From: a virus
Taxonomy: Duplodnaviria; Caudoviricetes
DNA length: 56,700 bases
IMG/VR virus record: IMGVR_UViG_3300037153_000087
Coordinates: 1-56,700 of that record
Reading direction: 5' to 3' (one strand)
Below, in pieces: positions 1-56,700 of this stretch (position 1 is the first letter of the stretch; the number at the start of each line of letters is the position of its first letter). The notes beneath the pieces were generated by a model that searched no databases, was not told the DNA's origin, and worked only from the letters and a program-made list of their open reading frames with translations. The position numbers were made by a program, and so were the translations under genes.

Positions 1-47
1 GTCTTTGCCCCTTCCGGACTCCCCCCGTGGGGATACCCCCCCTTCCC

Positions 48-320
48 CTACCATGCCCTACTCGTCCTTCGGTCCTGCGACGCGCGACCTGCCTTGCTGT
101 TACACCTGAAGTGCGAACCAGCAGCGTTGTCGATGTCGTAGATCAGCTCGGGGTGCGTGTCTACGGACTTGATGTGCTCCAGGCTCCATGACATCGGGTC
201 TGGGTGCTCCAGGTCGGGGTCGATATCGAGTTCGCATCGATAGCAAACCCAAGCGCGTTCGAGTTGCTTAACTCGTACCACAAAGTTATGGTATGCAGTA
301 GTAGTGCGTGGTCCAGTCAT
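48..320 (-). CDS. HNH endonuclease (terminase-associated)
   Basis: CxxC...SLEH...H.RCN motif; lies directly upstream of terS on the circular map; ATG at 320 overlaps the upstream stop. Confidence 0.85.
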   Translation of the reverse strand: MTGPRTTTAYHNFVVRVKQLERAWVCYRCELDIDPDLEHPDPMSWSLEHIKSVDTHPELIYDIDNAAGSHFRCNSKAGRASQDRRTSRAW

Positions 321-454
321 TTGCCCACCGCCATTGCCCACACGATGATTGACGGCGCGACGTACAGCATGAAGAACAGGATGGTCAGGGCAACCAGGGT
401 ACGCAGTACAATGTGGATCAGTATCCACTCCAGTACCCGCCCTACGATACCCAC
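317..454 (-). CDS. Small membrane protein (45 aa; not in the ORF track)
   Basis: GTG...TGA, MGIVGRVLEWILIHIVLRTLVALTILFFMLYVAPSIIVWAMAVGK; ATGA coupling to the HNH gene. Confidence 0.55.
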   Translation of the reverse strand: MGIVGRVLEWILIHIVLRTLVALTILFFMLYVAPSIIVWAMAVGK

Positions 455-643
455 GAGAACCTCGCTCCGTTATGGCCTGGTCTGTATATGCCAGTGGGGG
501 TGATCCGGTTTCCCAGACCACCCCCACCCGACAGGAGCACCCTCATGCTCGCACTTCCCCCAGGGAGTAGGCCGAACCCCCTATTGGCCGCGCACCCCCA
601 TCTTAACACGGCACCTTACCCTATAGCAAGACGCTTCTTACCG

Positions 644-919
644 TTACGGTCTTACCGGTATGCTGATTCGGTGGACCGCCACGTGACCCCCGTTCGGACT
701 GGTGTCCATGGGGTCGGGCACGAAATACCGCTGCCCGTCCTTCAACGCGAAGATCTCGACCACGATCTCGTTGCTGTAGATACTGATCTCGCGTAGATGT
801 TCGTAGTCCAGGCCCAGGTCCTTGATGAACGCGAGCAGCTTGGCCCGTTCCACCTGGTCGACCACCCCAGGGATGAACAGACCCTCTTGCGTGTCCGACC
901 CTGGCAGATGCTGGGTCAT
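644..919 (-). CDS. Hypothetical protein
   Basis: ATG preceded by GAGGAGG; phage-like codon use. Confidence 0.65.
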   Translation of the reverse strand: MTQHLPGSDTQEGLFIPGVVDQVERAKLLAFIKDLGLDYEHLREISIYSNEIVVEIFALKDGQRYFVPDPMDTSPNGGHVAVHRISIPVRP

Positions 920-1029
920 GGTTTCCTCCTCAGGGGGAGTGGCGTATCCGCCCTCGGGCGTCCGCACGGGTGATATGTTCGTCGTCGGCACCCCGTGATA
1001 CGGGCTTGCCCAGGCTCCATCGGCGAGGC

Positions 1030-1332
1030 TCACAGCGGATACCTTTCGCTGAGGTTGTCTACCTTGTTGTTGATCTGGTCGATCTTGGCCTCGATGCGCT
1101 CCTGGTCCTTGGCCTCGACCTTGAAGATCAGGTGTTTCGCGCCCAGCAGGAGTATGGCCTGGAACACGAGTTGCAGCCATTCGCTCTGCCAGTTCTCGAA
1201 CGTGGCCGCCCAGAACTCCTGCCACCCGGTTTCGGGAACCATGGTCAGCATCTGGCCGATCCACGATCCAGCGAACAGGGCTGCCAGCACCCAGACCGCA
1301 CCCCACCTGCGCAGGTGGTTCACGCGTTCCAC
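1030..1332 (-). CDS. Membrane protein, DUF6766-like
   Basis: Hydrophobic helices and a TFENWQSEWLQ motif. Confidence 0.6.
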   Translation of the reverse strand: MERVNHLRRWGAVWVLAALFAGSWIGQMLTMVPETGWQEFWAATFENWQSEWLQLVFQAILLLGAKHLIFKVEAKDQERIEAKIDQINNKVDNLSERYPL

Positions 1333-1871
1333 CCCTCTTCGATGATGAACTCGTCCCAGTGACCTGGAGTCGTGAACCGGGTGAACGCGTTGCCTCCCGG
1401 ATTCGGAAGGCCGACCTTCTCGTAGGCCCAGTCCGCGAAGCTGCTACAGACCACCGCTCCGGGAACCGCGTTGTCAGGCCACTCCTCGGCTGCCCGCAGT
1501 CTGATGTGCGTCGCCTGCCTGGCTGCCTCGGCTATCGCCTCCCAGTCATACGCGGTGTCGACCAGGCTTTCTGCGGCCTTGGCTATCAGGAACCGTTGCT
1601 CGTCGGTCTTCGGCTGGAGGTTGTTCGCGTTGGTCAGCGGCTGGTTCAATCGCTCGCCTACGTCGCACCAACCGGTACCAGAGGGCCTTCCCTCGATACC
1701 AACCCATCTTCCAGTGGCTGGGTCTTGGTGATGGACTATGATCACGTGGTTGCAGAACGCGGGGAGGTTCATCAACCTCGCGCCCAGCCGGATTCCCCAC
1801 GAAATCCACCACTTGCCCTCGCGCGTGACCAGCACGTCGCCGACCCCGATCATTCCTTTGAACCTCGGCAT
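1320..1871 (-). CDS. Permuted papain-like NlpC/P60 (YiiX/YebB-type) enzyme
   Basis: GDVL..., NH, YDW, VCSSFADWAY..G and TP motifs, with His before Cys. Confidence 0.7.
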   Translation of the reverse strand: MPRFKGMIGVGDVLVTREGKWWISWGIRLGARLMNLPAFCNHVIIVHHQDPATGRWVGIEGRPSGTGWCDVGERLNQPLTNANNLQPKTDEQRFLIAKAAESLVDTAYDWEAIAEAARQATHIRLRAAEEWPDNAVPGAVVCSSFADWAYEKVGLPNPGGNAFTRFTTPGHWDEFIIEEGWNA

Positions 1872-2061
1872 AGAGATTCCCTTCGACCATCGCCTCTCGG
1901 ATGGCCTTGCCTAGACCTGGAATAGTGTCGGTCGCCCAGTCTACGCCGATGACCTGAGGACACCAGCGTTCATGGTCGAGCCCGATCACGCCACCCTCCC
2001 CGAGAACAACCTCGCCTCGGCAGAGTGTGCATTTCATGCTCATGTTGACCTCCGGACACAG

Positions 2062-2100
2062 ACGAGCCCCCCGACGTCCTCCCAGCGTCGAGGGGCTCGC
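2062..2100. terminator. GC-rich hairpin downstream of the LTD gene
   Basis: cgagcccc-cgacg...cgtcg-aggggctcg inverted repeat. Confidence 0.55.
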
Positions 2101-2114
2101 ATCCGTGATGGCTT

Positions 2115-2663: not shown

Positions 2664-2786
2664 CGTGCCTCCGTAGTAGGTGTCCTGTGTACACTCTAGT
2701 AGAGCATGGGGCGTGTCGGACAGTCAAGAGCCCCCACCCTGCCCTGTTCGGGTTTGGTGTGGGGGCTCAAGCCGCAGGTCTCTGGC

Positions 2787-3296: not shown

Positions 3297-3341
3297 CTCA
3301 GGTCCTCCTAGTCGGGAGGGCGGCTTGCCCTCGTAATTACT

Positions 3342-3370
3342 ATTTTATCATGCCTGGGGCTTGGACGCAA
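3342..3370 (-). promoter_or_regulatory. Class-1 promoter
   Basis: TTGCGT-N17-TAAAAT with TGn extension. Confidence 0.65.
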
Positions 3371-3755: not shown

Positions 3756-3991
3756 GCGGGGACCACGTCAAGGAAAACGTTCGCTCGCAGGTACGCGCCG
3801 AACAACTCGGCATCGCTGGCCGCGTCGTTGAACGCCTTCATCGTCTCCAGGTCCTTGTCGAACTCGAACGCCTTCATGATCCGCTCGCGCAGGTCCACGC
3901 CAGGCCGACGTGCACCGCTCCTCAGACGGGAAGCCATCGACTCGGAGCAGCCCACGATCAACCCAAACTCTTCGTTAGTCATCTTGGTCAC
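3752..3991 (-). CDS. XRE-family helix-turn-helix protein
   Basis: TNEEFGLIVGCSESMASRLRSGARRP HTH pattern; GGAGG RBS. Confidence 0.8.
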   Translation of the reverse strand: MTKMTNEEFGLIVGCSESMASRLRSGARRPGVDLRERIMKAFEFDKDLETMKAFNDAASDAELFGAYLRANVFLDVVPA

Positions 3992-4806: not shown

Positions 4807-4860
4807 TAAAATAAAAGTACAACGAAGCGGGGAGCCTCCCCCAAACCGAAGGAGCTCGAA
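4783..4860 (+). promoter_or_regulatory. Class-1 promoter/leader/RBS cassette
   Basis: TTGTGG-N18-TAAAAT, G/C hairpin, GAAGGAGCTCGAA-ATG. Confidence 0.6.
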
Positions 4861-5335: not shown

Positions 5336-5354
5336 CCGCTCCCAGGAGGTGCTC

Positions 5355-11591: not shown

Positions 11592-11668
11592 TTGACGTCG
11601 GGGGTCCAAACATGATTTAATAAAATTACGAACGAGGGGGGCGGTCCCCCAGACGAGAGGAGCTCGAA
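11592..11668 (+). promoter_or_regulatory. Class-1 promoter cassette
   Basis: TTGACG-N18-TTTAAT; CATGATTTAATAAAATTACGAACGAGGGGGG identical to the 8300 copy. Confidence 0.75.
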
Positions 11669-11806
11669 ATGCTGAAGGGCAAGTGCATCCGCGAGGGTTG
11701 TGGCGAGGTTGTCGACTTCGGTGACATCGAGGTCGTCGGCGAGGGTTTCGTCTGCAGCCTGATCTGCGAGGGCATCGTCAACGGGACGATCGAGGTCGTC
11801 AACTAG
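11669..11806 (+). CDS. Small 4-Cys protein (45 aa; not in the ORF track)
   Basis: C....C ... CS..C; GAGGAG RBS. Confidence 0.65.
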   Translation: MLKGKCIREGCGEVVDFGDIEVVGEGFVCSLICEGIVNGTIEVVN

Positions 11807-11834
11807 CCCCCCCAAGAGGCCCCCTCCGGAAACA

Positions 11835-11912
11835 TTGACGGAGGGGGCCTTCGCATGATTTAATTTTATTAGAGGGGGGCGGTCGGCCCCCCCGCCCTCG
11901 AAGGAGCTCGAA
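11835..11912 (+). promoter_or_regulatory. Class-1 promoter cassette
   Basis: TTGACG-N18-TTTAAT; hairpin; GAAGGAGCTCGAA-ATG. Confidence 0.75.
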
Positions 11913-12326: not shown

Positions 12327-14090
12327 TCATTCCGGAGGGCTCACGAGCGGCACCAGCTCTCTGGGGTCCGGAGTGGCCAGACGGTAGGTACCCGCCTGGT
12401 CATCCCGGATGATCTCGATCCCCTTCCGGTTGCGCAGCCGCTTGATGGCGTCGTAAACCTGCTTGGTCTCCAGCCGAAGACCCGTTTCGATCTCCTGCCG
12501 AGTGACCTCGTCCCGGTGCCGGAGCAGGTTCAGAACCCGAGTGTCAACCGTCAGCGGAACGCCACCCTCCCCCCAGGGAGAACCATCAAGCCCGACCTTG
12601 TAGTCGGCCAGCCTGGCGACCTCGCTGGCCAGGTCGGAGTCACTGATGTACGGTGCCTTCCGGGGGATCGGCTTGCGGTATTCCTCGTTGCGGATCAGGT
12701 ACTCGCCAGGCCCAGCCAGCAACGTGTTGGGGTCCCAGCCCTTAGACTTCCAGTCCTGGCCGAACGCGTATTGCGCGTGGGCTGCCTCCTCCAGCCGCGT
12801 GCAGATCCGGTTCTTGTAGTTGGTCCGGCTGTCCGTGCTCCCGCCGAAGGCCGCAGCGCTGGGTGCCTGGGTCGCCTCTAGCAGGTAGACGCCGAACGCG
12901 CGATAGAGCCGCGACGCCTCCGCGTTCAGCTCCGGCAACGTCGGTAGACCGTCTACCTTCCACTTCTTCGAGGTCAGCTCGGCCATCTCGTCGACCACCA
13001 GTAGGATGTACGGGCCAAACTCCTCGTCCCAGCTCCGGATACCCTCCCGGTTCATGATCTCCGACCGCCTGTCGGTCTCCTGGTCGAGCCAGTCGAAAAC
13101 GTCGCGAGCCTGGTACCCGTCCTTGGCCAGGGTGACCATCAGCGGGCTGACCGGAGCCAGCTCCACCCCCTTCTTCATGTCGATCCCCAACACCGCCATA
13201 CCCCGCTGGACCGCAGCGAGAATGAACTGGTTGGTGATGTTCGACTTGCCGTTGCCGCTCGTCCCGAGGACCAGCGTGTGACGGTCGAGCAGCTTCACGA
13301 GCGTGGCCGCGTCGTCCTCGTCGGGACCGAGGTAGACGGGGTCGGACAGGTCTCCAGCCGTGTCGGGCACGTACGCGATGACGCTCTCGAACGTGCGCTT
13401 AGCGGTGTACTTGACGATGAGCTGGTTGTCGGCCACACCGTCTTCGAGCGCGTACTTGCCAGTCCCCGCGAGGGCACCCGCGACCCTGCCCCAGTTGAGC
13501 CGGAGCTTGGCCCGATCGAGGCCAGGAGGGCAGGCGAGAACCATGCGGTAGCCGTTCTTGATCGGCTCCACGAACACGCCCAGAAGCTCCTGCTTGAACA
13601 GCTCCCAGACCGCCGTACGGATGGCCGTCTCCTCCTGCGTGTGACCCGTCAGCATGGGCTGGTACTCGGGCGTGAGCCGCTTTTCGAGCGTGAGCAGCGC
13701 GGTTTGCGCGCGGATCTCGCCGATGGCGTAGCGCTGGAGCTTGATCTTCTTGTCGAGGTCCTTCGTGGACGAGTGGTGCTCGAACCACAACCGCATCCCG
13801 AACGCGCTGGCCGAAGCTGCCAGCCAGGCCCAGAGGCTGACCACATCGACACCGAACCAGGTCACCGCCCCCGCATAGGCGAAAGCTCCGGCAAACCCGA
13901 ATGCGACTGGCCAACCCTTCTTAAACCCGATATAGGTGGCTCCAGCCGCAGCCGCGTACCCCAACATGGCCATGCCCTCCGGATTCGGAGAGTTGATGTG
14001 CATGGCGAGACCCGCCGACAGGATGAGTGTCGACGGGCCAATGGAGTACCCGACCCTCTTCAGGGCCTGGAACCTCGCCTCTCTGGTCAC
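12327..14090 (-). CDS. FtsK/SpoIIIE-family DNA translocase, TraB-like
   Basis: N-terminal TM helices; Walker A GTSGNGKS; IDMKKGVEL; Walker B LVVDE; ATQ.P; C-terminal winged helix. Confidence 0.85.
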   Translation of the reverse strand: MTREARFQALKRVGYSIGPSTLILSAGLAMHINSPNPEGMAMLGYAAAAGATYIGFKKGWPVAFGFAGAFAYAGAVTWFGVDVVSLWAWLAASASAFGMRLWFEHHSSTKDLDKKIKLQRYAIGEIRAQTALLTLEKRLTPEYQPMLTGHTQEETAIRTAVWELFKQELLGVFVEPIKNGYRMVLACPPGLDRAKLRLNWGRVAGALAGTGKYALEDGVADNQLIVKYTAKRTFESVIAYVPDTAGDLSDPVYLGPDEDDAATLVKLLDRHTLVLGTSGNGKSNITNQFILAAVQRGMAVLGIDMKKGVELAPVSPLMVTLAKDGYQARDVFDWLDQETDRRSEIMNREGIRSWDEEFGPYILLVVDEMAELTSKKWKVDGLPTLPELNAEASRLYRAFGVYLLEATQAPSAAAFGGSTDSRTNYKNRICTRLEEAAHAQYAFGQDWKSKGWDPNTLLAGPGEYLIRNEEYRKPIPRKAPYISDSDLASEVARLADYKVGLDGSPWGEGGVPLTVDTRVLNLLRHRDEVTRQEIETGLRLETKQVYDAIKRLRNRKGIEIIRDDQAGTYRLATPDPRELVPLVSPPE

Positions 14091-14983
14091 GGCGTGTTGA
14101 CACCGCCCTTCTTGATCTCACGTCGGATGGCCGCCTCCAGCGACCCCCGGTTGACGTCCGGACGCTCGGTCACGATCGTGTTGAAAACCAAGTCCTTGGG
14201 AGCACCCTGGGCGAGCAGCTCGCGAACACGCTCGGCCATGCTCGGCGAGCTGCTCGAGCCGTTCGAGCCCGTGTTCGGGCCGGTGAGAACGCTGGTGTTC
14301 GGCTGCTCGACGAGCTGCTCGGTGTGCTCGTTCGAGCTGCTCGCGAGCTGCTCGGCACCCCACACGTCGCGCCTGCTCGCCTCGATCGCGAGCTTGAGGG
14401 CAACCGCCTGGTCGTCGGCCATGGCCACCTTGCGCAGGACCTCCGCGACAGCGAGCTGAGCGTGGGCCTTGCTGACCACCGCATTGACCCAAGCCTCGTG
14501 CTCAGGGTCGAGGTCCCGGTCGACGAACTTCATGATCGCGAGCCACAGGACCTTGGCGAACAGGCTGACAGCGGCACCGACGACGGCCAACGGGATGTTG
14601 TCAAGCACCACCCCATGCCAGCCGATGAAGAACATCGTGACGACGAGCAGAGCCCAGCCGAGGTTGCGCGGGAACCCGCGCTTCTTGGGGTCGAAGCGTG
14701 CCTTCCACTCCAGGATGAGGCAGATCGCCCAACTGATGTCGAACAGGAGAGCAGCCAGGAACCCGACGCCTCCGCCGAGAAGTTGGCCGATACTGACGGT
14801 CGACCAGGTGATCGCGATGAGCGTGAGGATGCCGACCAGACCGAACGCAAGACGCGTGGCCAGCTCGTCCCAGTTGCGCGGGATGATGGGGATCTTCTCG
14901 GTCTCCGTGACCATGACGGTCTCGGTACGGTCACCGATCGTAACTTCCTTGGGTACCTGCACGGTACGGACGTTGAACTTCAT
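14087..14983 (-). CDS. SpdB-like plasmid spread/transfer membrane protein
   Basis: PR.WD, WST.SIG.LL, FD..W...L..EW..R motifs; 4 TM helices, coiled coil and HTH-like tail; coupled to the traB-like gene. Confidence 0.65.
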   Translation of the reverse strand: MKFNVRTVQVPKEVTIGDRTETVMVTETEKIPIIPRNWDELATRLAFGLVGILTLIAITWSTVSIGQLLGGGVGFLAALLFDISWAICLILEWKARFDPKKRGFPRNLGWALLVVTMFFIGWHGVVLDNIPLAVVGAAVSLFAKVLWLAIMKFVDRDLDPEHEAWVNAVVSKAHAQLAVAEVLRKVAMADDQAVALKLAIEASRRDVWGAEQLASSSNEHTEQLVEQPNTSVLTGPNTGSNGSSSSPSMAERVRELLAQGAPKDLVFNTIVTERPDVNRGSLEAAIRREIKKGGVNTP

Positions 14984-26551: not shown

Positions 26552-28591
26552 GTGAGACTGCGTGACCTGCCGGACGGCTACCCGATCGAGGTGGACACCG
26601 AGACCTCAAATCTATACGTCGACGCTGGTGGCCGAATCGCGGCGGTCAGCTTCGCGTTCCGGGTGCCAGACGCCCAAGGCGAATCCGACCCAAGCCAGCC
26701 GCTGGTCTGGAAGGCGGTATCGTTCGACCAGGGCGTCGACCACCTCCCGCTCGGGGACAAGACCCTCAACGACCGGACGATCAAGCGTCTATCGAAGTGG
26801 CCCGACTGGGCACTGGACGAGGACGCCAGGAACCTCCCCCCTGAGAAGTACGTCGAGCTGACCAAGGAGTTCAGCCGACTGCGGATCTGCTGGCACAACG
26901 CCAAGTTCGACCTGTCGATGTTCAGGGCTGGCCTCCGAGGCGAGGAGGCTGCAACGGCGATCGACCTGGAGGACAACACCTACTGGGACACCCAACTGGC
27001 GCAGAATGTGATCGACCCGCGTTGGGGAGTCGCCCTCAAGCCGACCGCTGTCCGGCTGCACCTGGGTGCCGAGCTGGGCGTCAAGGAGGGCATGGAGGAC
27101 GACGAGGCCGAGGCCCTTAAGCCGTGGCTCGGACCGAAGTCGGGCAAGAACGCCGACCCCCGGTACGACCTGGTCCCCTGGTCGATCATGGGTCCCTACG
27201 CCAAGATGGACGCTGCCCTGACGATCCTGCTCCGTGAACACCAGTGGGAGCTGCTGGCCGAGCAGTACGCGTTCGTCATGCACCACATCTCCCGCGAGAC
27301 GGACCTCATGAAGGTTCTGTATCGCATGGAGGGGCGTGGCGTCGGCTTCGACGTGCCGTTGGCGATTCAGATGCAAGAGCTGATCGAGGAGGAGCGCAAG
27401 CGCACAGCCGCCACCCTCCCCTTCGAACCGACCCCCAACAAGGCGCGCGTCTACTTCTTCGGCGACCCCCCGGACGGGCTGGGCCACGACAAGTACGACG
27501 ACAAGCTGACCGAGAAGAAGCGCGAGCCCCAGGTCGACGACGAGGTCATCAGTCGGCTGGCAGCGGAGGAGTGGGAAGGTCGGCGCATCGCGCAGATCTA
27601 CCAGCGACACGAAGCCCTGAAGAGCGCCAACGCGAAGTGGTACGGAGCCTGGCCGTACATGGCTGGGCCTGACGGCAGGCTGCGTACGAACCACAAGCAG
27701 AATGGCACCGTTAGTGGTCGGCTGAGCGTCGAGCGGATCCAGCTCCAGGCGATCCCCCAGCCGTACCAGATGCCCAAGGTGGACGGGCTGGTCGGCGTGC
27801 GCGACCTGTTCATCGAGACTGAGAAATGCTCGTGCGGGTGTGGCGTCCTGGAGATGTGGGAGTTCGACGTAAGCCAGGCCGAGATTCGGATCGCGACGGC
27901 ACGAGCCCAATGCAGGCCGATGCTCGAAGGCTTCTACCGAGGCGACGACTCGCACAGCATCGCCTGCCGACTGATGTTCGGCGCGGTGTTCGACAAGGAC
28001 GGGTTCGGGGGCAACGAGGAGGCACACCCGGACTGGGACGAGTTCCGCCAGGTGTCGAAACGCTGCAACCTGGGCATTCTGTACGGCGCAGGCGTCAAGA
28101 TCATCCGTGAGCAGATCATGAAGTTCACGGGGGTCGTCTACCCGATGCGCCAGGTGGGGATCTGGGTCAACCAGTGGAACGAAGCGTTCCCCCAGATGGG
28201 CGAGCGGCTGGAGCTGATGAGCCGGATGGCCCAGCGCCAGGGGTTCGTCAAGCTGATCAACGGCAGGCAGCGCTGGTTCAGTCCGTACGAGGACCTGCAC
28301 AAGGCGTTCAACCAGGAGGTGCAGGGGTCGCTGGCCGAGGTCATGAAGGAGATCATGATCGAGGTCGAGAACGAGTTCCCGAACGCGCTGCTCCTCCAGA
28401 TTCACGACTCGATCATCCTGCGGCTGAGCCGCTGCCAGCTCGCAGCCGGAGCGTCCGACCGCGTGAGCAAGATTATGGCCACGCGATTCGAGGAGGCGTT
28501 CGTTAGCAGGTGGAAGGACAGCGGCAAGCTGGTCCGGGTGCCGTTCCGCTCGGACGCCAAGAGGTTCGGTCGCAAGGAGGCAGCGGCGTGA
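26552..28591 (+). CDS. Family A DNA polymerase with 3'-5' exonuclease (candidate DpoZ)
   Basis: Exo DTET, HNAKFD, YA..D; SGRLS; motif A DVSQAEIR; motif B R..SK..NLGILYG; motif C IHDS. Confidence 0.93.
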   Translation: MRLRDLPDGYPIEVDTETSNLYVDAGGRIAAVSFAFRVPDAQGESDPSQPLVWKAVSFDQGVDHLPLGDKTLNDRTIKRLSKWPDWALDEDARNLPPEKYVELTKEFSRLRICWHNAKFDLSMFRAGLRGEEAATAIDLEDNTYWDTQLAQNVIDPRWGVALKPTAVRLHLGAELGVKEGMEDDEAEALKPWLGPKSGKNADPRYDLVPWSIMGPYAKMDAALTILLREHQWELLAEQYAFVMHHISRETDLMKVLYRMEGRGVGFDVPLAIQMQELIEEERKRTAATLPFEPTPNKARVYFFGDPPDGLGHDKYDDKLTEKKREPQVDDEVISRLAAEEWEGRRIAQIYQRHEALKSANAKWYGAWPYMAGPDGRLRTNHKQNGTVSGRLSVERIQLQAIPQPYQMPKVDGLVGVRDLFIETEKCSCGCGVLEMWEFDVSQAEIRIATARAQCRPMLEGFYRGDDSHSIACRLMFGAVFDKDGFGGNEEAHPDWDEFRQVSKRCNLGILYGAGVKIIREQIMKFTGVVYPMRQVGIWVNQWNEAFPQMGERLELMSRMAQRQGFVKLINGRQRWFSPYEDLHKAFNQEVQGSLAEVMKEIMIEVENEFPNALLLQIHDSIILRLSRCQLAAGASDRVSKIMATRFEEAFVSRWKDSGKLVRVPFRSDAKRFGRKEAAA

Positions 28592-30685: not shown

Positions 30686-31828
30686 ATGGGTGGTAAGATC
30701 AGCGTCGTCGTCGGCGGACAGTTCGGGTCGGAGGCCAAGGGCGCGGTTGCCGGGTTCCTCTCGTCCGACCGCAACTGGTGGACCCGTCCGGCTCGACAGA
30801 CGGTCTGCGTGAGGGTCGGTGGCCCGAACGCTGGACACACGGTCTACGGGAGCTGCCCGAGCGACTGCGACGAGGGCGGAACCCCGGCTCACGAGCTGGG
30901 TCACCCCTGGCGACTCCGCCAGATCCCGGTCGCTGCCGTCACCAACCCGGAGTCCCAGCTCCTCATCGCGGCTGGCTCCGAGGTGGACATGTCGGTCCTC
31001 CGGGAGGAGTGGCGTCAGCTCAACAGCGCGGGTTACCAGCTCAGGGGTCGGCTCAACATCGACTACAGCGCGACCCTGCTGGAGGAGCGGCACATCACGC
31101 AGGAGCAGGGCGACGGGCTCAACGGTAGGATCGGCTCGACGGCCAAGGGCATCGGAGCCGCGAGGGCAGACCGAATCTGGCGCAAGGCGAGCATCATGCG
31201 CAGCCAGTACGACGTCATGAGGGCGATGGGTATCCTGCTCGTCGACTCGACCACCATGCTGACGATGCGGCTCGAAGCGCAGAACCACGTGATCATCGAG
31301 GGCACCCAGGGCTACGGGCTGGGCCTGCACACCGAGTTCTATCCGCAGGTCACGAGCGGCAACTGCCGAGCCATCGACTTCCTGGCGCAGTGCGGCATCA
31401 GCCCCTGGTCGGCGATGGTGACCGACCTCGACGTGTGGGTGGTCGCCAGGACCTACCCGATCCGGGTCGCTGGCAACAGCGGTCCGCTGGCCGACGAGAC
31501 CTCGTGGGAAGAGCTGGGTCTGGAGCCCGAACAGACCACCGTCACCAAGAAGACTCGGCGAGTCGGCGGATGGGACGGCGAGCTGGTTCGACGCGCGGTG
31601 TGGGCGAACGGCGGAGGCTGGAACGACCATGTCAAGATCGCGCTGATGATGGCCGACTACAAGATCCCTGGGCTCAAGGGGATCCGCGACAGCAACGACA
31701 TCAACAACCAGGATTACGATGCTCTCCAGAAGCTGGTACGCGAGGTCGAGGGGCAGACCGACGCCCGTGTGGGCCTGGTCGGAACTGGCCCGACGTCCAT
31801 TCTCGATCTTCGCGGCTGGAACCTCTGA
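30686..31828 (+). CDS. purZ: N6-succino-2-amino-dAMP synthetase (PurZ/PurZ0-type PurA paralog)
   Basis: GGQFGSEAKG with Ser replacing the PurA catalytic Asp; GPNAGHT; GST.KG.G; EGTQG; PIRVAGNSGPL; TTVTKK.RRV; compact archaeal-type length. Confidence 0.88.
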   Translation: MGGKISVVVGGQFGSEAKGAVAGFLSSDRNWWTRPARQTVCVRVGGPNAGHTVYGSCPSDCDEGGTPAHELGHPWRLRQIPVAAVTNPESQLLIAAGSEVDMSVLREEWRQLNSAGYQLRGRLNIDYSATLLEERHITQEQGDGLNGRIGSTAKGIGAARADRIWRKASIMRSQYDVMRAMGILLVDSTTMLTMRLEAQNHVIIEGTQGYGLGLHTEFYPQVTSGNCRAIDFLAQCGISPWSAMVTDLDVWVVARTYPIRVAGNSGPLADETSWEELGLEPEQTTVTKKTRRVGGWDGELVRRAVWANGGGWNDHVKIALMMADYKIPGLKGIRDSNDINNQDYDALQKLVREVEGQTDARVGLVGTGPTSILDLRGWNL

Positions 31829-31926
31829 TGGGCAAGCAGGTGCAGGTCAAGAAGCAAGGCAAGAAGCCCAAGCCTGCGACCGACATCGACCGGCGCAGCC
31901 CGAGCGGCAAGGAGCACAAGAACTGA
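31828..31926 (+). CDS. 32-aa Lys-rich peptide
   Basis: TGATG-coupled on both sides. Confidence 0.5.
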   Translation: MGKQVQVKKQGKKPKPATDIDRRSPSGKEHKN

Positions 31927-32312
31927 TGAACAAGCTCAAGCGCGAGCAGCTCGCTACGGAGCTGGCCACCTGGTGGCAGCTCAAGGCGAGCGACGAGACC
32001 GACATGGTGGTCGGCAAGGCAGTCGAGTACGGAGGCGAGGGAGCGGCCATCGACCTGCTGGACATCGGCTACGCGATGGCACTCGCGATCGGTCGGGAGG
32101 TCGACGACGAGGAGGCCACCGAGCTGGGGATCTACTTCTACATGGTCGGCAAGATGGCCAGGTGGAAGGCCGCAGTGACCGAGGGCAGGCGCGTCAGCGA
32201 CGACACGATCCTCGACATCGGCATCTACTGCCGGATGGCCCAGCGTAACCGCGAAGTCGGTGGCTGGCCGTTCGGTCCGAAGCCCCCGACGACGGAGATC
32301 GTCAAGCCGTAA
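31926..32312 (+). CDS. All-alpha (MazG/DUF1599-like) nucleotide pyrophosphohydrolase
   Basis: K..EYG, E.G..F...K..R and DDT..D...Y pattern; in the purZ operon. Confidence 0.6.
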   Translation: MNKLKREQLATELATWWQLKASDETDMVVGKAVEYGGEGAAIDLLDIGYAMALAIGREVDDEEATELGIYFYMVGKMARWKAAVTEGRRVSDDTILDIGIYCRMAQRNREVGGWPFGPKPPTTEIVKP

Positions 32313-32366: not shown

Positions 32367-33260
32367 ATGATCGTGTACTTCGCTGAGCCGATCGACCAGG
32401 ACCAGGCCAATTACGTCGAGATCGAGTTCCGGACCACCATGCAGAACCACCTCCTGCGGACCGGTGCCAGCGTCTACCGTCCGGCAACCGCCTGGAACCT
32501 GGCGAGCATCGACCGTCACACGAGCGCGGTGGCCGAGAAGGTCAACCGAACCGCGCTGGCCGAGGCCGACCTCCTGGTCGCGCGCCTGCCCGAGGGGACC
32601 GCCAGCGTCGGCGTTCCGATGGAGATCGAGTACGCGACCCGCGTGCTGGGGATTCCCGCGATCGTGGTCGGCGTGGGAGGCGTGGCGCTCCAGGCCAACC
32701 CGATGGTCTGGCTGGTCGACGGGCGCAACATCGGCAAGTTCGACCGGATGTACGAGATGGTCGCACGCGAGAAGGCCAACGACGTCAAGCCGCTGTACCA
32801 CGTGGGCAGCCTCAACCCGAGGTCCTACCCTGGCGACGCGGGCATCGATCTGGTGGCCAACGCCGACACGGTCATCCCGGCTCACGGGACGGCGAGGGTC
32901 CCGACCGGTAACCACTTCCAGTTCCCTCAGGGAGTGTGGGGCTGGATCGTCGCGAGGTCGAGCACGTTCGAGACCTACGGCGTGCAGATCCTGCCGGGCA
33001 TCATCGACGAGGGTTACACGGGCGAGCTGTTCGCGAACGCGCTGAACGAGTCGGACCAGCCGAGGCTGATCAAGGCGGGTAGCCGACTCTGCCAGATCAT
33101 CCTGTTCGAGAACAAGACGGCGCAGTACGCGCCGATCCAGGTCGACAAGATCGAGGAGCGCGACCGAGGCAGCAACGGGTTCGGGTCGACCGGTGCCAAC
33201 GGTCATTTCCTGAGCAACGGTCCCGACTCGATCAAGGTCATGACTGGGGAAATCTCCTAA
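32367..33260 (+). CDS. Fusion of nucleoside 2-deoxyribosyltransferase/dNMP-glycosidase-like domain and trimeric dUTPase-like domain
   Basis: N-terminal VYFA.P...ADLLVA...SVG..MEI.YA; C-terminal DAGIDL, RSS, GIIDEGYTGE, R.CQ and RG.NGFGSTG. Confidence 0.85.
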   Translation: MIVYFAEPIDQDQANYVEIEFRTTMQNHLLRTGASVYRPATAWNLASIDRHTSAVAEKVNRTALAEADLLVARLPEGTASVGVPMEIEYATRVLGIPAIVVGVGGVALQANPMVWLVDGRNIGKFDRMYEMVAREKANDVKPLYHVGSLNPRSYPGDAGIDLVANADTVIPAHGTARVPTGNHFQFPQGVWGWIVARSSTFETYGVQILPGIIDEGYTGELFANALNESDQPRLIKAGSRLCQIILFENKTAQYAPIQVDKIEERDRGSNGFGSTGANGHFLSNGPDSIKVMTGEIS

Positions 33261-35396: not shown

Positions 35397-36116
35397 ATGG
35401 CCCGCAAGAACACCGCCAAGACGCCCTGCGAGTGCAGCCGCTACTCCGTCCTCATCAACATCCGCACCGGCAACGACGGCAACCTGGTCTGGGACCAGGA
35501 GCTGACCACCGGTTGCCCCAAGACGCTGACGGGCCGCGACTTCGCCCCCGGACACGACGCCAAGCTCAAGGGCTTCCTGATCCGCGCGGGCATCGAGGGT
35601 CACGAGGTCTGCGACGACCAGGGCATCAGCTGCACCGCCGAGGCGATGGCGGGTCGGTACGGGTTCGCCCACATGGTGCGCGAGGGCGTCGAGAACGGCA
35701 AGTTCAAGCGCGCCGAGGCTGCCGAGCGTCGCAAGGCTCGTGAGCACAAGGCCGAGCTGCGCAACGACCGCGAGAACGAGAAGGCTGAGCGCAAGCTGGC
35801 CAAGGCTGCCAAGGTGGTCGAGACCACGCACGACGGCAACTCGGCTCGTCAGGAGCGCGAGCTGGCCGCCCTGGTCGCAGCCGAAGAGGCCAAGTTCGCC
35901 GAGCAGCAGGCCGCGCAGGCCGACGAGCGTCCCGAGCCCGAGTGGGACGACGAGCCCCAGGCCGTGATCATCGAAGAGCCGATGCCCGAGAGCGTCGAGA
36001 TGGTCGAGGCCAAGGTTGGCCGCTGGACCTACCTGGGCGAGGTCCGCAACGGCTGGTTCGTCTACTCGGACCGCAAGGGCAACAAGAAGTCGACGCAGGA
36101 CTTCGAGCTGGTCTAA
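35397..36116 (+). CDS. FAPGHDAKL-motif family protein (paralog 3)
   Basis: PCEC...C...FAPGHDAKLKG; C-terminal KVGRW.Y.G. Confidence 0.8.
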   Translation: MARKNTAKTPCECSRYSVLINIRTGNDGNLVWDQELTTGCPKTLTGRDFAPGHDAKLKGFLIRAGIEGHEVCDDQGISCTAEAMAGRYGFAHMVREGVENGKFKRAEAAERRKAREHKAELRNDRENEKAERKLAKAAKVVETTHDGNSARQERELAALVAAEEAKFAEQQAAQADERPEPEWDDEPQAVIIEEPMPESVEMVEAKVGRWTYLGEVRNGWFVYSDRKGNKKSTQDFELV

Positions 36117-43640: not shown

Positions 43641-44107
43641 TAGGCACCTGCACCCTGCGTGGCCTTAGCCAGGCCCTCGGCGTGAACGTTCAGGTTGAGG
43701 TTCGTGCCGTTGGTGGTCACGGACAGGTCGTAGTGGAACAGAGGAATGATCGCCGAGTCGGCCGAGCCGGAATCCGGCTTATAGCAGACCAGAGCCTTGA
43801 CGAGCGCGTTGTTGGACGCGCCACCCGCGTTGCTGAACACGATGGGGGTGTTGGCCGTCAACTCGGCTTCGTTGTTGGTGTTGTCCTGGCTGGCCGACAC
43901 CCCGGACAGGGTCTGGCGAGCGTAGTTCGTGAAGTTGGCTTCGGTGTTGGCAGCCGTCCAGGCCGCAAGGGTGTTGTGGTCGTCCAAGGTGTCGTCGGCC
44001 TGAACCGAGTCCTTGAACAGCACGACGATCAACGAGTCGCTCGCTGCTGGCAGCCCAGCGTAATACCGCCAGATGCCCTTAGCGACGTTACAAACGCGAG
44101 TTGCCAT
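43640..44107 (-). CDS. Conserved actinophage tail-associated protein
   Basis: NVAKG...YY; EANFTNYAR..L; position after the tape measure. Confidence 0.7.
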   Translation of the reverse strand: MATRVCNVAKGIWRYYAGLPAASDSLIVVLFKDSVQADDTLDDHNTLAAWTAANTEANFTNYARQTLSGVSASQDNTNNEAELTANTPIVFSNAGGASNNALVKALVCYKPDSGSADSAIIPLFHYDLSVTTNGTNLNLNVHAEGLAKATQGAGA

Positions 44108-51021: not shown

Positions 51022-52533
51022 TTAGACGGCGGTCTCGATGTTGAGCATCCGGAACGCGTTGTCGTTGATCGAGTCGGCACCGACCCGGTACCACGCGTAC
51101 CAGCCACGCTGACCGGTCGGACGGCGGTTCGCGCCCATGAGGTGCGGGATGAACTCGACGGTCATACCGATCCGGTCGGTGATGACGTAGTTCTCGAAGT
51201 CGCCGTAGATGAGGACGTAGTTGTCGCCAGCCGCAGCCGGGTTCCACGTGTCGTCCATGTTCTCGGCCTCGTAAGCCGGACGACCCAGGAGCTGGTTCGG
51301 CACGTCGGCACCGATGCGCTCCCAGAGGTTCGCGCCACCCGCCGTGTCGAACTGCCGGACCAGGTTGAAGATCGCCCGGTTGGCGACGTAGCTGGATCCG
51401 CTCCGGAAGTCGGTCGGCAGCGCACCGTCCAGGGCGTAGAGGTCGGCGATCGTGAACGCCTCACCCGCAGCCGTGACGATACTGATTCCGCCAGCGCTGG
51501 CCGCCAGTGCCGTTACGATACCGGTCGGCTGGTTGGTGCCCGTACCGACCGTCAGGGCCTCCGCCTCCAGCGTGTCCTTGCCACGCGCCAGCAGTCGACC
51601 GACCTCCGCCGTGACGTTGGCCGCGTCGCCCATCGCCTCGATCGAGATCGGCACGAAGCCGTTGGCCTTGTGGTTGGGGATCGCCAGCGGACCGAAGGTC
51701 GGCGTGTCGTCGGTGGTCTCTTCCTCTTCCGGACGCCAGTGCCACACGACGTCGCTCGCGCTGACGCCGTTCCAGACGTCGCCCGTGGCCACGACCTTGC
51801 GGGAGATCTGCCGGATCGGGTTGCGGGTGCCCGTGGAGGTCAGCACCAGAGTCGGGTCGAGCTGGAACGGCACCAGGTAGCCGCCCTCGGCGTCGGTCAG
51901 CGACATGGCCCGCTCCAGGGCGCGCTGCTCCTCGGGCGACACCAGGTGACCCCTGCCCATGGCGACCTTCTGCCACGCGCGGAGGTACTCGGGCGAGGAG
52001 GTGGCGAGCGCCATCCGAGCGATGGACCCGTCCTTGTCGTCGAACATCTCCAGCACGTGCGTGGCCGCCGCGCGGATCTTGTCGTTCGCACCGCTCATCT
52101 TCTCGACGGCGGAGATCGCCCGAGCGCGCAGTTCCTGCGTGACCTCCTCGCGGCTCCGGCTGAACGTCCGAACCTCGCTCAGGTCCCAGGGGTTGCGGAA
52201 TCGACCGCTGCGCACGTCGTCCGGGTTCAGCAGCGGGTCACGGTCGTAGTCGTTGCCGTAGTTGCTACCGGGCTCGACGCCCGAACCCCGCTCGGTGCGA
52301 AGGTTGAGAGCAGCGGGCACTCGCTCGGTGGCCTGGGCAGCGCCACGAACGCGAGCCAGAGCCGCGTTGCGCTCCAGCTTGCGGCGGTGAGCGTCGACCT
52401 CACCGAACTCGCGAGTCAGCTCGTCGAACTGCTGCTCCTGCTCGGCGGTCGGGTCTTCGATGGCACCGAGCCGCTCCAGCTCGGATGTGATGTCCTTCAG
52501 TCGGATGACTGACTGGCCGTGGCTGAGTTCCAT
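51022..52533 (-). CDS. HK97-fold major capsid protein
   Basis: Delta-domain coiled coil; GGYLVP; G.G..QP.GI; LLGRP; GDF..Y.I.DR.G. Confidence 0.92.
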   Translation of the reverse strand: MELSHGQSVIRLKDITSELERLGAIEDPTAEQEQQFDELTREFGEVDAHRRKLERNAALARVRGAAQATERVPAALNLRTERGSGVEPGSNYGNDYDRDPLLNPDDVRSGRFRNPWDLSEVRTFSRSREEVTQELRARAISAVEKMSGANDKIRAAATHVLEMFDDKDGSIARMALATSSPEYLRAWQKVAMGRGHLVSPEEQRALERAMSLTDAEGGYLVPFQLDPTLVLTSTGTRNPIRQISRKVVATGDVWNGVSASDVVWHWRPEEEETTDDTPTFGPLAIPNHKANGFVPISIEAMGDAANVTAEVGRLLARGKDTLEAEALTVGTGTNQPTGIVTALAASAGGISIVTAAGEAFTIADLYALDGALPTDFRSGSSYVANRAIFNLVRQFDTAGGANLWERIGADVPNQLLGRPAYEAENMDDTWNPAAAGDNYVLIYGDFENYVITDRIGMTVEFIPHLMGANRRPTGQRGWYAWYRVGADSINDNAFRMLNIETAV

Positions 52534-53477: not shown

Positions 53478-54828
53478 TACCAGTTCCCTCCTCGGTTGCC
53501 GGAGCCGTGTCCTCTTCAGCCCCCGGTTCTTGAAGCTGCACCGACAGCAGCCCAGTGTGCTTACCCTTCAGGATGCCCAGATCCTCGGATGTGACCGCCT
53601 CGACAACGGTGTCGGGGTCCCAACCTCCGTCGCCCAGTTCGCGGATGATACCCGCCTTGGTCTCCAGGATCTTGGCCATGTCGAGTGCATCCTCGCGCAG
53701 CGAGGGCACCGAGCTGGTGTCGTACCAGAGCCTTGAACCGTTGTCCGGCAACGGCAGGATCTCTTGAAGACTTCCGCACATGTTGGCCCACAGGTGAGCC
53801 ATCGTCCCGTCAGTGAACCTACGCCACGCGGCCTTGTAGTTGCCCGCGTTGAGGCTGGACCCCTGCAGACCCTCGCTGAATCCAGCGATGACCGGAGGCA
53901 CTCCAGCCGCTGCCGCCAGCCTCGTCTCACCTCGACCCATGATGTCCGTGAACGCCATGGCCTGGAAGTCGGAACCGACGATCGTGATGTCAGCGCCACC
54001 CCCCACCGTGAGAGTCTTATATGCGTTCTCGACTCCTCGGTGTTCGAGGTTCATCATCTCCTTGAACTTCTTGAACTGCTCGAAGCTGACCGCAGCGTCC
54101 ATGGCCACGACCATGTTGGGCGTCGCGCCGTTCTCGAAGAACTTGGTCTGGTGTGTCGACATGAGCTTGTCGTTGATCAACTGTCGGATGACCGGAGTGA
54201 TCCAGCTCATGCCTCGGTAGTTCGCCAGCGGGTCGGGGTAGGGCGCGAAGTGGCTGACCTCATCCGGCAGGAACGGTACGGGGTCGTCGTGGTACCCGAT
54301 ACCGCCTTCCCAGTACAGGTAGCCCACCCTCTTATACCCTACTATGCCACCCCGGAACCTTCTCGGCTCCAGGACGATCTCCACCCAGTCAGGCCGCAGC
54401 CGTACCAGCTCGTCCTCGACTCGCGTAACGTACCCGTTGCCCGTCAGGTCGGCGTCGACGATTTGGCCCATCAGCAGGTCTTGGGTGGTTCCGCCAGCGA
54501 ACGGTCGATCGAGGATGCGAAGGTCGGGCGTAACGAACGTCCCGGAGGGCTTACCCTGCCGGAGCCGCTGCCAGTTGAACATGATCGACGAGAACACGCT
54601 CATCCGGATGGCCATCAGGCTGAAGATCGGACCGTGTCCGCCGTACGCGGCTTGGGCGTAACCGGTCAGGCCCTGGGGCGTAGTCTCAACGTTTTGGCCC
54701 GCGAGCGTCTGCTGGTACGTGCCGTAGGCCATGAGATTGCCGACCATCGAAATGTAGTCGTCGATGGTTTGCATCTGGTACTGGCGCTCGGCGAGCTGTC
54801 GCTGCCTGACTCGCTCAAGGGCGTTCAC
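53455..54828 (-). CDS. HK97-family portal protein
   Basis: GNGY; LRPD.V; G.S; FF.NGA.P; GVPP..G. Confidence 0.9.
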   Translation of the reverse strand: MNALERVRQRQLAERQYQMQTIDDYISMVGNLMAYGTYQQTLAGQNVETTPQGLTGYAQAAYGGHGPIFSLMAIRMSVFSSIMFNWQRLRQGKPSGTFVTPDLRILDRPFAGGTTQDLLMGQIVDADLTGNGYVTRVEDELVRLRPDWVEIVLEPRRFRGGIVGYKRVGYLYWEGGIGYHDDPVPFLPDEVSHFAPYPDPLANYRGMSWITPVIRQLINDKLMSTHQTKFFENGATPNMVVAMDAAVSFEQFKKFKEMMNLEHRGVENAYKTLTVGGGADITIVGSDFQAMAFTDIMGRGETRLAAAAGVPPVIAGFSEGLQGSSLNAGNYKAAWRRFTDGTMAHLWANMCGSLQEILPLPDNGSRLWYDTSSVPSLREDALDMAKILETKAGIIRELGDGGWDPDTVVEAVTSEDLGILKGKHTGLLSVQLQEPGAEEDTAPATEEGTGNGDNPDA

Positions 54829-54958
54829 TGGTCACCCCCCGAGCCGAGTCGACCCCGATCTGGTAGGCGGTTCGAATCCATCCCATTCCCATCTCGATCT
54901 TGGTCACCGCCCACCCGGTGAAGATGACGACGTTAAATAGCGCGCTGACGAGGATCAT
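54815..54958 (-). CDS. Small hypothetical protein
   Basis: ATGA-coupled between terL and portal. Confidence 0.5.
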   Translation of the reverse strand: MILVSALFNVVIFTGWAVTKIEMGMGWIRTAYQIGVDSARGVTSERP

Positions 54959-56445
54959 TCCCAGCTTGCCCAGGGCTCCACTTCCTCGGCTGTCGTGTTG
55001 AACCCCAGCGCGCCCAGGGTTGCCGCGTATAGCGGACTGATGTCCTCGTCTGTAGTCCTGCGTGACCATGCCCAGGAGTCTCCAATCACTCGCTTGTCGG
55101 CTCCAGCAAGCGCGTAGGCCATCGCCTTGTCGCCCAGGTGGACCATCCTGCTGTATCGAACCGCGTCGTAGAACCAGCCACACCACTGACAGATCTCGGT
55201 GATGTTGGGCGTCAGGACGGGGATCTCACGTTCAAGCTCCCCTTCCTTGTAGAGTCGGGCGAGCCCCTTCCGGAGGCCAGGAACCAGCGAGCCAAGAGGT
55301 CCCTTACCGTCGATCACGAAACACTTCGGATTCCACTTGACGGCCAGCACCAGAGCGCGGTCAAGCATCCAGCCAGTGCCGGGTGAGTGGTCGGTGATCT
55401 CCAGAGTTTCCAAACCCCCCTGGTTCTTGCCCCAGGCACCGATAGCGCCATACGACTTTTCGGGAGTGCAGTCGAGCCCGAACGCCACCTCCCCCGTGAG
55501 AACACTATCCGAGTCAAGGCAGTCGTTCCACATCTGCTCCTTGATGACTCGCCATTTGTCCTGCGTCGCGTCGGGCCACTGATTGAGGTAGGCGCGTCGG
55601 AAGTCGGCGAGGTCCATTGACTCCTTGTCGTCCCGGATGGCCTGGATGTCGATGGTGTAGCCCAGCGCGGGCATGCACTCCCACCAAACCTCTTCATCCT
55701 CGGGGTCCGCGTCCTCGGGTGCCGACCACTCGAAGTAGGCCACACCAGTGTTGACCCCAGCCTCGCACCGCGCTCGACCCGCGTCTACCTTGGACTTCAG
55801 GAACACGCTCTTCTCGGTGCCAGCCGTCGACACGACCCACTGCTGAGGCATCGGCCTTGTGATCATCGCGGGCTTGAACGCCTGCTCCAGGCGGTTATCG
55901 ACCTGAGCGAACGCCTCGTCGATCACGCCTAGGTCGAGCGTTTCGCCGTGTCCAGCGGTTGATGTACTTGGGATCACGCCGTGTCGGCTGCCGTTTCGCC
56001 ACTTGATCGCCTCGTGTCCGAGCTGGAGCTTAACCCTGAAGTCGTTCTTGAACTTCGACTCGCGGAGGGTGGCGACGTGCTCCTCTTCCCACTTCAGACG
56101 GGCTGCGCCTCGCGTCTGTGCCGTGTAGAGGATGCGCTGCTTGGTGCCGAACCCCAGCGCGCGTTGAACCATCATACTCAGGAGGAGGGTCGTCTTGCCC
56201 GACTGCCTCGGGACCGTCAACACGACCTCGCGATAGACCAGCCGACCCGTATCGGGGTTGACCTCCAAGGCCACGTCGGCAACATAGCGCTGCCAGGGCA
56301 TCAGAGGTGTTCCCAGCTCCTCAGCGATGCGCGCTACTGCGGGTCCATAGGTCGGACGGCTTGGTGTCCTTCCAGTCGCCCACCTCGGGGGACAACTGCG
56401 GGGTTGAGATGTCACGCTGGAGGTCGCTTCGATCATCGTCGTCAT
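54955..56445 (-). CDS. terL: Terminase large subunit
   Basis: LMPWQ; VPRQSGKT; IDEA; STAG; EWSA; nuclease GLD; start uncertain. Confidence 0.93.
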   Translation of the reverse strand: MTTMIEATSSVTSQPRSCPPRWATGRTPSRPTYGPAVARIAEELGTPLMPWQRYVADVALEVNPDTGRLVYREVVLTVPRQSGKTTLLLSMMVQRALGFGTKQRILYTAQTRGAARLKWEEEHVATLRESKFKNDFRVKLQLGHEAIKWRNGSRHGVIPSTSTAGHGETLDLGVIDEAFAQVDNRLEQAFKPAMITRPMPQQWVVSTAGTEKSVFLKSKVDAGRARCEAGVNTGVAYFEWSAPEDADPEDEEVWWECMPALGYTIDIQAIRDDKESMDLADFRRAYLNQWPDATQDKWRVIKEQMWNDCLDSDSVLTGEVAFGLDCTPEKSYGAIGAWGKNQGGLETLEITDHSPGTGWMLDRALVLAVKWNPKCFVIDGKGPLGSLVPGLRKGLARLYKEGELEREIPVLTPNITEICQWCGWFYDAVRYSRMVHLGDKAMAYALAGADKRVIGDSWAWSRRTTDEDISPLYAATLGALGFNTTAEEVEPWASWE

Positions 56446-56650
56446 CCGCTGCCTCCTGAATCCTGTTGAGGGTCTCCGTCAGTTGCTTGGCGACTGCGGC
56501 TGTTGCCATGCCCGCGTCGAGGTCGAGCTTGCTGGCCAGATTGTAGGCGACTTCGCAGAGTGATCGAACGAACGCGCCCTGTAGCTTGAGCTTGAGGATG
56601 TCGTTGCGTACCTGCGTCTCGATTGGGCCGTAATTACTCACAGTTCCCAC
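56321..56650 (-). CDS. Terminase small subunit
   Basis: Helical LA..LD....A...K.L..TL pattern; directly upstream of terL. Confidence 0.65.
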   Translation of the reverse strand: MGTVSNYGPIETQVRNDILKLKLQGAFVRSLCEVAYNLASKLDLDAGMATAAVAKQLTETLNRIQEAADDDDDRSDLQRDISTPQLSPEVGDWKDTKPSDLWTRSSAHR

Positions 56651-56700
56651 CTAATCACGCGCTGTTGATCCCCCCATGGTCCGAAAAGAAAGAGAAAGAC

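Follow-up and report, generated by a model that had tools for sequence, protein, structure and literature searches.

Does a phage that replaces the adenine of its DNA with 2-aminoadenine (Z) still have to purge restriction sites from its genome, and which ones? Avoidance of short palindromes, i.e., restriction sites, is a known phenomenon in phage genomes. The question is raised here by an IMG/VR virus record (IMGVR_UViG_3300037153_000087; Duplodnaviria, Caudoviricetes), hereafter the window, meaning the whole 56,700-bp stretch that was analysed (a complete entry with an estimated completeness of 79% and a guanine-cytosine (GC) content of 63.4%). The window carries a homologue of purZ0, the gene for 2-aminoadenylosuccinate synthetase, and lacks a number of palindromic hexamers. 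A first-pass annotation, made by eye from the sequence, had proposed that Z shields A-containing sites, leaving only A-free ones under selection. The reading that we regard as probable is classical restriction-site avoidance in which the avoided set was plausibly reshaped by partial shielding through Z; a link with adenine replacement is supported only in this softened, statistical form.

We compared word counts with Markov models of orders 0-4 and with 300 within-gene shuffles of synonymous codons in 66 genes (86% coding), called by a rough method based on GC content at third codon positions. Five G/C-only palindromes (GGCGCC, GCCGGC, CCGCGG, GGGCCC, and CCCGGG) had no copy in the window and CGGCCG had one, at 43759-43764 (palindromic sites are given without strand), just as the first-pass annotation had read. 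The expectation for each of these six was 22-40 copies under order 2, 18-34 under order 3, and 7-19 under order 4, and the codon shuffles gave 20-41, with lowest counts of 9-25. GCGCGC (43 copies vs 31-45 expected), which the annotation had rightly set apart, and CGCGCG (37 vs 38-58) were not avoided, i.e., six of the eight G/C-only palindromes were depleted rather than all of them, and the pooled observed/expected ratio (O/E) of the eight was 0.32 (order 3). The purge extended to sites containing A and T. AGGCCT was absent (13-28 expected), CTCGAG (at 14253-14258; 28-49 expected) and CAGCTG (at 35627-35632; 28-42 expected) occurred once each, GAGCTC five times (at 4852, 11660, 11904, 34546, and 37810; 28-36 expected), and CTGCAG four times (10-19 expected). 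Four to five A/T-containing palindromes were purged as hard as the A-free ones in the window, which contradicts the claim that only A-free sites are under selection. The contrast drawn between purged A-free and abundant A-containing sites was overstated: GAGCTC had mistakenly been called very frequent, CAGCTG and AGGCCT went unmentioned, and CTCGAG and CTGCAG do occur, as had been said, yet both are depleted. GTCGAC and CGATCG, also described as very frequent, do have 63 copies each, but this is the Markov expectation (63-79) and no excess; CGATCG exceeded its codon-shuffle mean of 40 and GTCGAC did not exceed its own. Taken over positions 1-56,700, the depleted palindromes number eleven (the six G/C-only words plus CTCGAG, CAGCTG, GAGCTC, AGGCCT, and CTGCAG), and the remaining 20 palindromes with two A/T letters had a pooled O/E of 1.06.

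Such deficits could in principle be a by-product of codon usage, dinucleotide bias, amino-acid content or mutation bias, arising without any selection on sites, and their partial shrinkage under the order-4 model (6.7 copies of GCCGGC expected) would fit this. Nevertheless, the shuffles, which preserve both protein and codon usage, restored the G/C-only words to the numbers given above against 0-1 copies seen, and all eleven words fell below the minimum of the 300 shuffles. When the 2080 canonical hexamers were ranked by order-3 z-score, 10 of the bottom 20 were palindromes, and one-letter neighbours of the depleted palindromes were abundant: CTCGAG 1 vs CTCGAC 68 and GTCGAG 67, CAGCTG 1 vs CAGCTC 52 and GAGCTG 74, and AGGCCT 0 vs AGGCCA 39 and AGGCCG 48, with TGGCCA at 44. 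Codon pairs were rerouted in the manner that the annotation had described for Ala-Gly and Gly-Ala. GCC-GGC occurred 0 times (22 expected) and GCT-GGC 33 times (10.4 expected); GGC-GCC occurred 0 times (20 expected) and GGT-GCC 27 times (10.9 expected). The same held for pairs containing A, namely CTC-GAG (0 vs 21 expected), CAG-CTG (0 vs 19), and GAG-CTC (2 vs 22.7). Given the shuffle deficits and the rerouted codon pairs, composition and protein content cannot explain the depletion, and a mere by-product is scarcely credible. What the window shows is selection acting on words of its DNA, which is the recognised mark of restriction avoidance.

Shorter or looser targets were also considered. 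The cores GGCC, CCGG, GCGC, CGCG, AGCT, and TCGA stood at 0.74-1.15 of their shuffle means, and the abundance of TGGCCA, ACCGGT, and TCCGGA likewise contradicts them as targets. The degenerate sites RCCGGY, YGGCCR, RGCGCY, and GRGCYC were ruled out for the window because ACCGGT, TGGCCA, AGCGCT, and GAGCCC were undepleted.

Some other words of the window deserve mention. The lowest z-score of all its hexamers belonged to the A-free but non-palindromic GCCCCG/CGGGGC, which had one copy (at 23300) against approximately 46 under the codon shuffle or 55-59 under Markov models; its O/E was likewise low (0.12) in Wayne, a phage of Arthrobacter, and lay near 1 (0.68-1.43) in the other testable genomes of the isolate panel described below. 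Depleted in the window alone were CCGGC followed by C/G, CCGGC preceded by A/G, and all four [CG]GGCC[CG] words; CCGGCG/CGCCGG had 4 copies (53-68 expected) and the eight-base CRCCGGYG none (14.7 expected). These window-only losses of A-free words suggest further host specificities beyond plain hexamers. On the other hand, ACCGGT (41 vs 21), CGATCG (63 vs 40), and ACGCGT (29 vs 18) exceeded their codon-shuffle means, and runs of CCCCC/GGGGG numbered 264 against 153 expected (order-2 Markov). Words in excess are possibly the escape routes of recoding. GAGCTC and CTGCAG together retain nine sites, three of which (GAGCTC at 11660 and 11904 and CTGCAG at 11752) lie within 250 bp at 11660-11909, and this cluster may mark recently acquired DNA in which the purge is incomplete.

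The case for Z rests on the replication genes. The purZ0 homologue (30686-31828, + strand) encodes 380 amino acids (PF00709, 58.5 and 49.1 bits), and its top PDB match was 7vf6 (E = 2.9e-80), which is PurZ0 of Gordonia phage Archimedes according to PMC12884076. Its motif GSEAKG places Ser at the position of the catalytic Asp (Asp13) of PurA, and this Ser was invariant across 10 aligned PurZ sequences; the replacement holds for all PurZ, as stated in PMC8515928, and the predicted protein of the window has the hallmark residue of Z-genome phages. Two genes downstream of purZ0 lies a DmtZ-DutZ-like fusion (32367-33260, + strand; 297 amino acids) that combines an N-terminal NDT-like part with a C-terminal dUTPase domain (PF00692, 5e-23, residues 149-276). 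It aligned over its full length with Wayne ALY10777.1 (30% identity, residues 3-276, E = 2e-40). In Wayne, DmtZ-DutZ is the enzyme that clears dATP/dGTP, and it has been shown to remove dATP and to produce dGMP (PMC12884076). By homology, the putative fusion would give the window the dATP-clearing and dGMP-supplying enzyme of Z-genome phages. No HD or MazG domain was found in those open reading frames (ORFs) neighbouring purZ0 that were scanned. Between purZ0 and dmtZ-dutZ, where Wayne carries the nucleotide hydrolase DUF5664, the window has a 197-amino-acid ORF (31719-32312, + strand) with no Pfam or PHROG match; it was ruled out as a counterpart of the Wayne protein since the two share no similarity. 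A gene for family A DNA polymerase (polA; 26552-28591, + strand) belongs to the replication module and adjoins purZ0. Judged by its predicted genes, the window is a PurZ0-type phage, and Z most likely replaces A in its virion DNA. No integrase was found in the window, and the phage is therefore probably lytic; nor was a DNA methyltransferase found in searches with PF00145, PF01555, and PF02086.

If Z is present, the avoided set can be set beside the biochemistry of Z-DNA. In PMC12944874, 147 enzymes were tried on dZ DNA; 53% of them were resistant or partly resistant, 47% continued to cut, and resistance was strongest at sites that contain four to six Z. Among an 18-enzyme example given there, SalI, ApoI, BstYI, and BsaI cut dZ DNA, SalI fully or nearly fully, which runs counter to the SalI resistance that the first-pass annotation had predicted; AatII, BamHI, NruI, PstI, PvuI, and SphI were among the enzymes resistant or partly resistant. 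We then counted strong avoidance of six GC-rich sites of such blocked or partly blocked enzymes. It occurred in 5 of 63 genome-site pairs in purZ+ actinophages, compared with 16 of 42 in non-Z actinophages lacking an integrase and 5 of 49 in those bearing one. This concordance with dZ sensitivity, to which the purge of GTCGAC (a site that SalI cuts in Z-DNA) in the Arthrobacter Z phages described below also belongs, is our best evidence that shielding by Z shaped the avoided set.

For a broader comparison, 30 isolate phage genomes were fetched, all of which are reported. The first 27 comprised 11 purZ+ and 16 purZ- genomes, and three proteobacterial phages, all purZ+, completed the panel (Vibrio J2, Acinetobacter JeffCo, and Salmonella PMBT28). 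Non-Z isolates were picked through a terminase match list and accession numbers before any k-mer statistic. Pooled O/E over the eight G/C-only palindromes (order-3 Markov) was 0.16-0.63 in 14 of 15 purZ+ genomes, the window included. It ranged from 0.21 to 0.63 in the ten other actinobacterial purZ+ genomes and was 0.26 in J2, 0.18 in JeffCo, and 0.16 in PMBT28; in the sixteen purZ- genomes it was 0.50-0.97. Compared by lineage (8 vs 16), the ratio of G/C-only to two-A/T values differed at p = 1e-5 to 5e-4 across Markov orders 1-4 (order 3: 1e-5). With integrase gene presence as a proxy for lifestyle, seven purZ+ actinophage lineages were set against seven integrase-less non-Z lineages. G/C-only O/E was 0.46 vs 0.75 (p = 0.007), and O/E over 20 other two-A/T palindromes (leaving out CTCGAG, GAGCTC, CAGCTG, and AGGCCT) was 0.99 vs 0.79 (p = 0.026). 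GCCGGC and GGCGCC were near zero in 11 of 11 actinobacterial purZ+ genomes (five named host genera plus the window), nine of these 11 avoided CTCGAG, and eight of the 10 testable avoided GAGCTC. Cyanophage S-2L, the archetypal Z phage (L067-L069), had a G/C-only O/E of 0.85, with only CCGCGG (0.12) and GCGCGC (0.24) low. S-2L is almost without avoidance, which means that not every Z genome bears the imprint.

Could the avoided set simply mirror the host? The closest PurZ proteins are those of Streptomyces phages Galactica and Hiyaa (50-52% identity). Relatives of the major capsid protein (51022-52533, - strand) were sought with a capsid alignment, because a seven-phage alignment of the terminase large subunit was too divergent as a query. 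They occurred on 80 viral contigs at 55-84% identity, and the closest in bacterial genomes (60-69%) were mostly in Streptomyces, with others in Microbispora, Actinomadura, and Planotetraspora. Both sets of relatives point to a host that is probably a Streptomyces-like actinomycete. We presume, furthermore, that the avoided sites are linked to the Streptomyces and Nocardia enzymes SacI, SacII, StuI, NaeI, and NarI. High-GC actinomycetes with mostly G/C-rich specificities might have set the avoidance by themselves, purZ being incidental. Three Streptomyces phages without Z (R4, phiC31, and phiBT1) have avoided sets that overlap with the one seen here, and host repertoire alone could therefore explain the window. 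Vendetta, a non-Z phage of Gordonia, likewise avoids five of the eight G/C-only sites. On the other side, phages of one and the same Arthrobacter strain differed. Five A/T-containing sites (CTGCAG, GGATCC, CGATCG, CGTACG, and GTGCAC) were avoided by its non-Z phages and mostly kept by its Z phages, although GTCGAC and CTCGAG were avoided by both alike (GTCGAC was purged in 3 of 3 Arthrobacter Z phages and likewise in Amigo, Laroye, and Tank, from the same strain). The pattern recurs in the three purZ phages of proteobacteria, and the other two-A/T palindromes lie nearer expectation in purZ+ genomes than in integrase-less non-Z isolates or in the random loci described below. An avoided set dictated by host repertoire only is, in our judgement, unlikely, although it carries real weight.

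The same strains bring up a cause within the phages themselves, that is, a nuclease, packaging or replication function common to purZ0 phages that cuts or binds GCCGGC, GGCGCC, GGGCCC, CCGCGG, GAGCTC, and CTCGAG. The near-zero counts of GCCGGC and GGCGCC across several host genera are what it would predict, as is the tolerance of both words by same-strain non-Z phages: GCCGGC had no copy in Sucha and Zanella and an O/E of 1.53 in Dismas and TomBrady12, from the same strains, and of 0.72-1.02 in Eyre, Kiko, and Guacamole. Nevertheless, no candidate gene was identified, unrelated non-Z phages sporadically avoid the same words, and S-2L, as said, avoids almost none. Avoided sets also vary among purZ lineages (in CCCGGG, CGGCCG, GTCGAC, and GCGCGC), as selection by hosts predicts. 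We hold a phage-intrinsic cause to be very improbable.

Metagenomic contigs broadened the sampling. Locating purZ+ contigs in IMG/VR took an alignment of PurZ, as a single PurZ query gave no viral-contig relatives. Among the 281 purZ+ stretches known there, 80 loci were taken. Those without N and with a length of 10 kb or more numbered 56 and formed 42 clusters; three of the purZ+ loci are isolates that belong to the panel or lie close to it. The capsid-relative set comprised 81 loci, 53 of which passed, in 38 clusters. A random background came from a scan that started from an arbitrarily chosen 14-mer and gave 120 loci, of which 68 were 8 kb or longer and 36 had enough expected G/C-only sites; purZ was found in 0 of these 36 contigs, many of which are fragmentary, those with a Z-like signature being 15-47% complete. 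At GC ≥0.6, G/C-only O/E was 0.56 in purZ+ clusters and 0.80 in capsid relatives (p = 7e-7). Strong avoidance in high-GC purZ+ clusters affected CCGCGG (25/30), GCCGGC (23/31), GGCGCC (17/31), and GGGCCC (16/31) among the G/C-only palindromes, i.e., four of eight were commonly avoided, and CCCGGG, CGGCCG, CGCGCG, and GCGCGC were each avoided in one cluster of 29-31 testable. GAGCTC (24/27) and CTCGAG (25/30), whose avoidance again speaks against selection on A-free sites only, were hit as often, and CAGCTG (9/28) and AGGCCT (7/22) less so. From these counts the recurring signature is one of six to eight specific words, two to four of them with A/T, and not of all A-free words.

Against random loci, purZ+ clusters did not differ in median G/C-only O/E (0.56 vs 0.61, p = 0.95), a likeness that host repertoire would predict. 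They differed in the other two-A/T palindromes (0.92 vs 0.74, p = 3e-6; within the shared GC range of 0.50-0.66, 0.92 vs 0.77, p = 4e-4). This weaker two-A/T depletion is in the direction expected from the model of the first-pass annotation, in which Z shields A-containing sites; its softened form survives and its strict form does not. The annotation had also hoped for a fingerprint of Z phages independent of purZ. The separation of purZ+ from purZ- was near-complete in the 30 isolates, but a stand-alone detector was weak, the area under the curve being 0.79 when capsid relatives served as the contrast and 0.63 when random loci did. A joint criterion chosen post hoc held for 10/11 and 22/42 in the purZ+ sets and for 0/16, 4/38, and 2/36 in the purZ- sets. 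One random locus (L393; GC 0.595) had the Z-type imprint, with 0 G/C-only sites against 54 expected and a two-A/T O/E of 0.78; no purZ was found in its contig, which is itself only 27% complete.

Several points weigh against avoidance reshaped by Z. The presence of Z in virion DNA is deduced from genes. The concordance with dZ sensitivity involves few enzymes, which are commercial and not those of the hosts, and related genomes. The panel samples are small and related as well, lifestyle was judged by integrase presence only, and the thresholds for strong avoidance and for the joint criterion were set after the data had been seen. Avoidance of G/C-only sites is stronger in isolates with purZ than in non-Z phages of the same hosts, which shielding alone would not predict; possible reasons are a wider natural host range once enzymes that read A no longer matter, a lack of other means of anti-restriction, or the phage-intrinsic cause considered above. 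Among the non-Z Streptomyces phages, R4 avoids CCCGGG, CCGCGG, AGGCCT, CAGCTG, CTCGAG, and CTGCAG, and phiC31 avoids CCGCGG, GCCGGC, GGGCCC, CAGCTG, and GAGCTC. Furthermore, 10 of the 36 random loci, in which no purZ was found, have a G/C-only O/E of 0.35 or less, and at GC 0.53-0.59 the depletion in purZ+ clusters does not exceed that in random loci.

Under restriction avoidance with partial shielding by Z, Type II restriction-modification systems of the hosts would have selected out about eleven palindromes, almost wholly through synonymous choice of codons and codon pairs. The purged set would probably be the overlap between common host specificities and enzymes still active on Z-DNA. G/C-only sites hold no Z and would always be exposed, and selection on A/T-containing sites would persist only for enzymes that can cope with the additional amino group in the minor groove. 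The sequence suggests such tolerance for enzymes that read CTCGAG, GAGCTC, CAGCTG, or AGGCCT (and, in part, CTGCAG), and SalI at GTCGAC is a documented case; sites of Z-blocked enzymes would drift back toward expectation. The cognate enzymes themselves, and the preference for shielding over host repertoire as the source of the skew, are what we infer. More tentatively still, and with some doubt, purZ phages across phyla may share an imprint in which G/C-only sites are purged, most A/T sites are released, and CTCGAG, GAGCTC, CAGCTG, and AGGCCT remain purged. If true, this imprint would be a natural read-out of restriction specificities that tolerate Z, and enzymes of the XhoI, SacI, PvuII, and StuI types are predicted to cut Z-DNA, a cheap prediction of Z-indifferent enzymes that would help to type Z-DNA and to assess how far Z protects. 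Too weak to serve as the sole detector of Z phages, it could still enrich for Z-genome fragments without purZ, such as locus L393. Substitution of a base throughout a genome would then be seen to leave a measurable evolutionary footprint in phage sequence, with Z as partial armour that did not spare the phage the recoding of about eleven sites.

Restriction-site avoidance itself is well established, and avoidance in prokaryotic genomes is the subject of PMC4687349. The window resembles it in that palindromic hexamers are depleted against composition-aware null models through synonymous choices, and in that the effect is strongest in integrase-less phages and variable among lineages. It differs in that the window also carries a base-substitution pathway and in that the purZ-associated set is skewed, with most other A/T sites at expectation. 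The window resembles the PurZ/PurZ0 phages with Z genomes, such as S-2L, phiVC8, Wayne, and Ghobes, in having a predicted PurZ0 with the Asp-to-Ser replacement, a Wayne-like DmtZ-DutZ, and a family A polymerase, although S-2L, unlike the window, has almost no avoidance. With phiC31 and R4 it shares overlapping avoided words (CCGCGG, GCCGGC, GGGCCC, CAGCTG, GAGCTC, CTCGAG, and AGGCCT) and, in its capsid module, a relationship to Streptomyces prophages, but GCATGC and GGATCC, kept by the window at O/E 0.56 and 0.67, belong to the avoided set of R4 as well. In a limited search of the open literature, which included surveys of Arthrobacter and Microbacterium phages, no paper was found that describes site avoidance for phages with Z genomes, and the effect of Z on a phage's own site avoidance is apparently unreported there.

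Finally, the gene complement of the window includes, besides the genes already named, those for a portal protein, a primase-polymerase, a helicase, and an exonuclease, and the large terminase subunit lies at 54955-56445 (- strand). A near-identical isolate was not found when 25 kb of the window was compared by megablast with 50,697 phage records. Among the capsid relatives, purZ was found in 0 of 39 contigs tested, including 0 of 20 with a completeness of at least 90%, and many of them are proviruses. Since these relatives are free of purZ and many are integrated, the Z replication module sits on a head module common to temperate phages, and the genome of the window is a clear mosaic of the two. 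In the opposite orientation to its replication genes, the window also encodes a 587-amino-acid FtsK/SpoIIIE-like protein (12327-14090, - strand; PHROG 1358, E = 1e-25).

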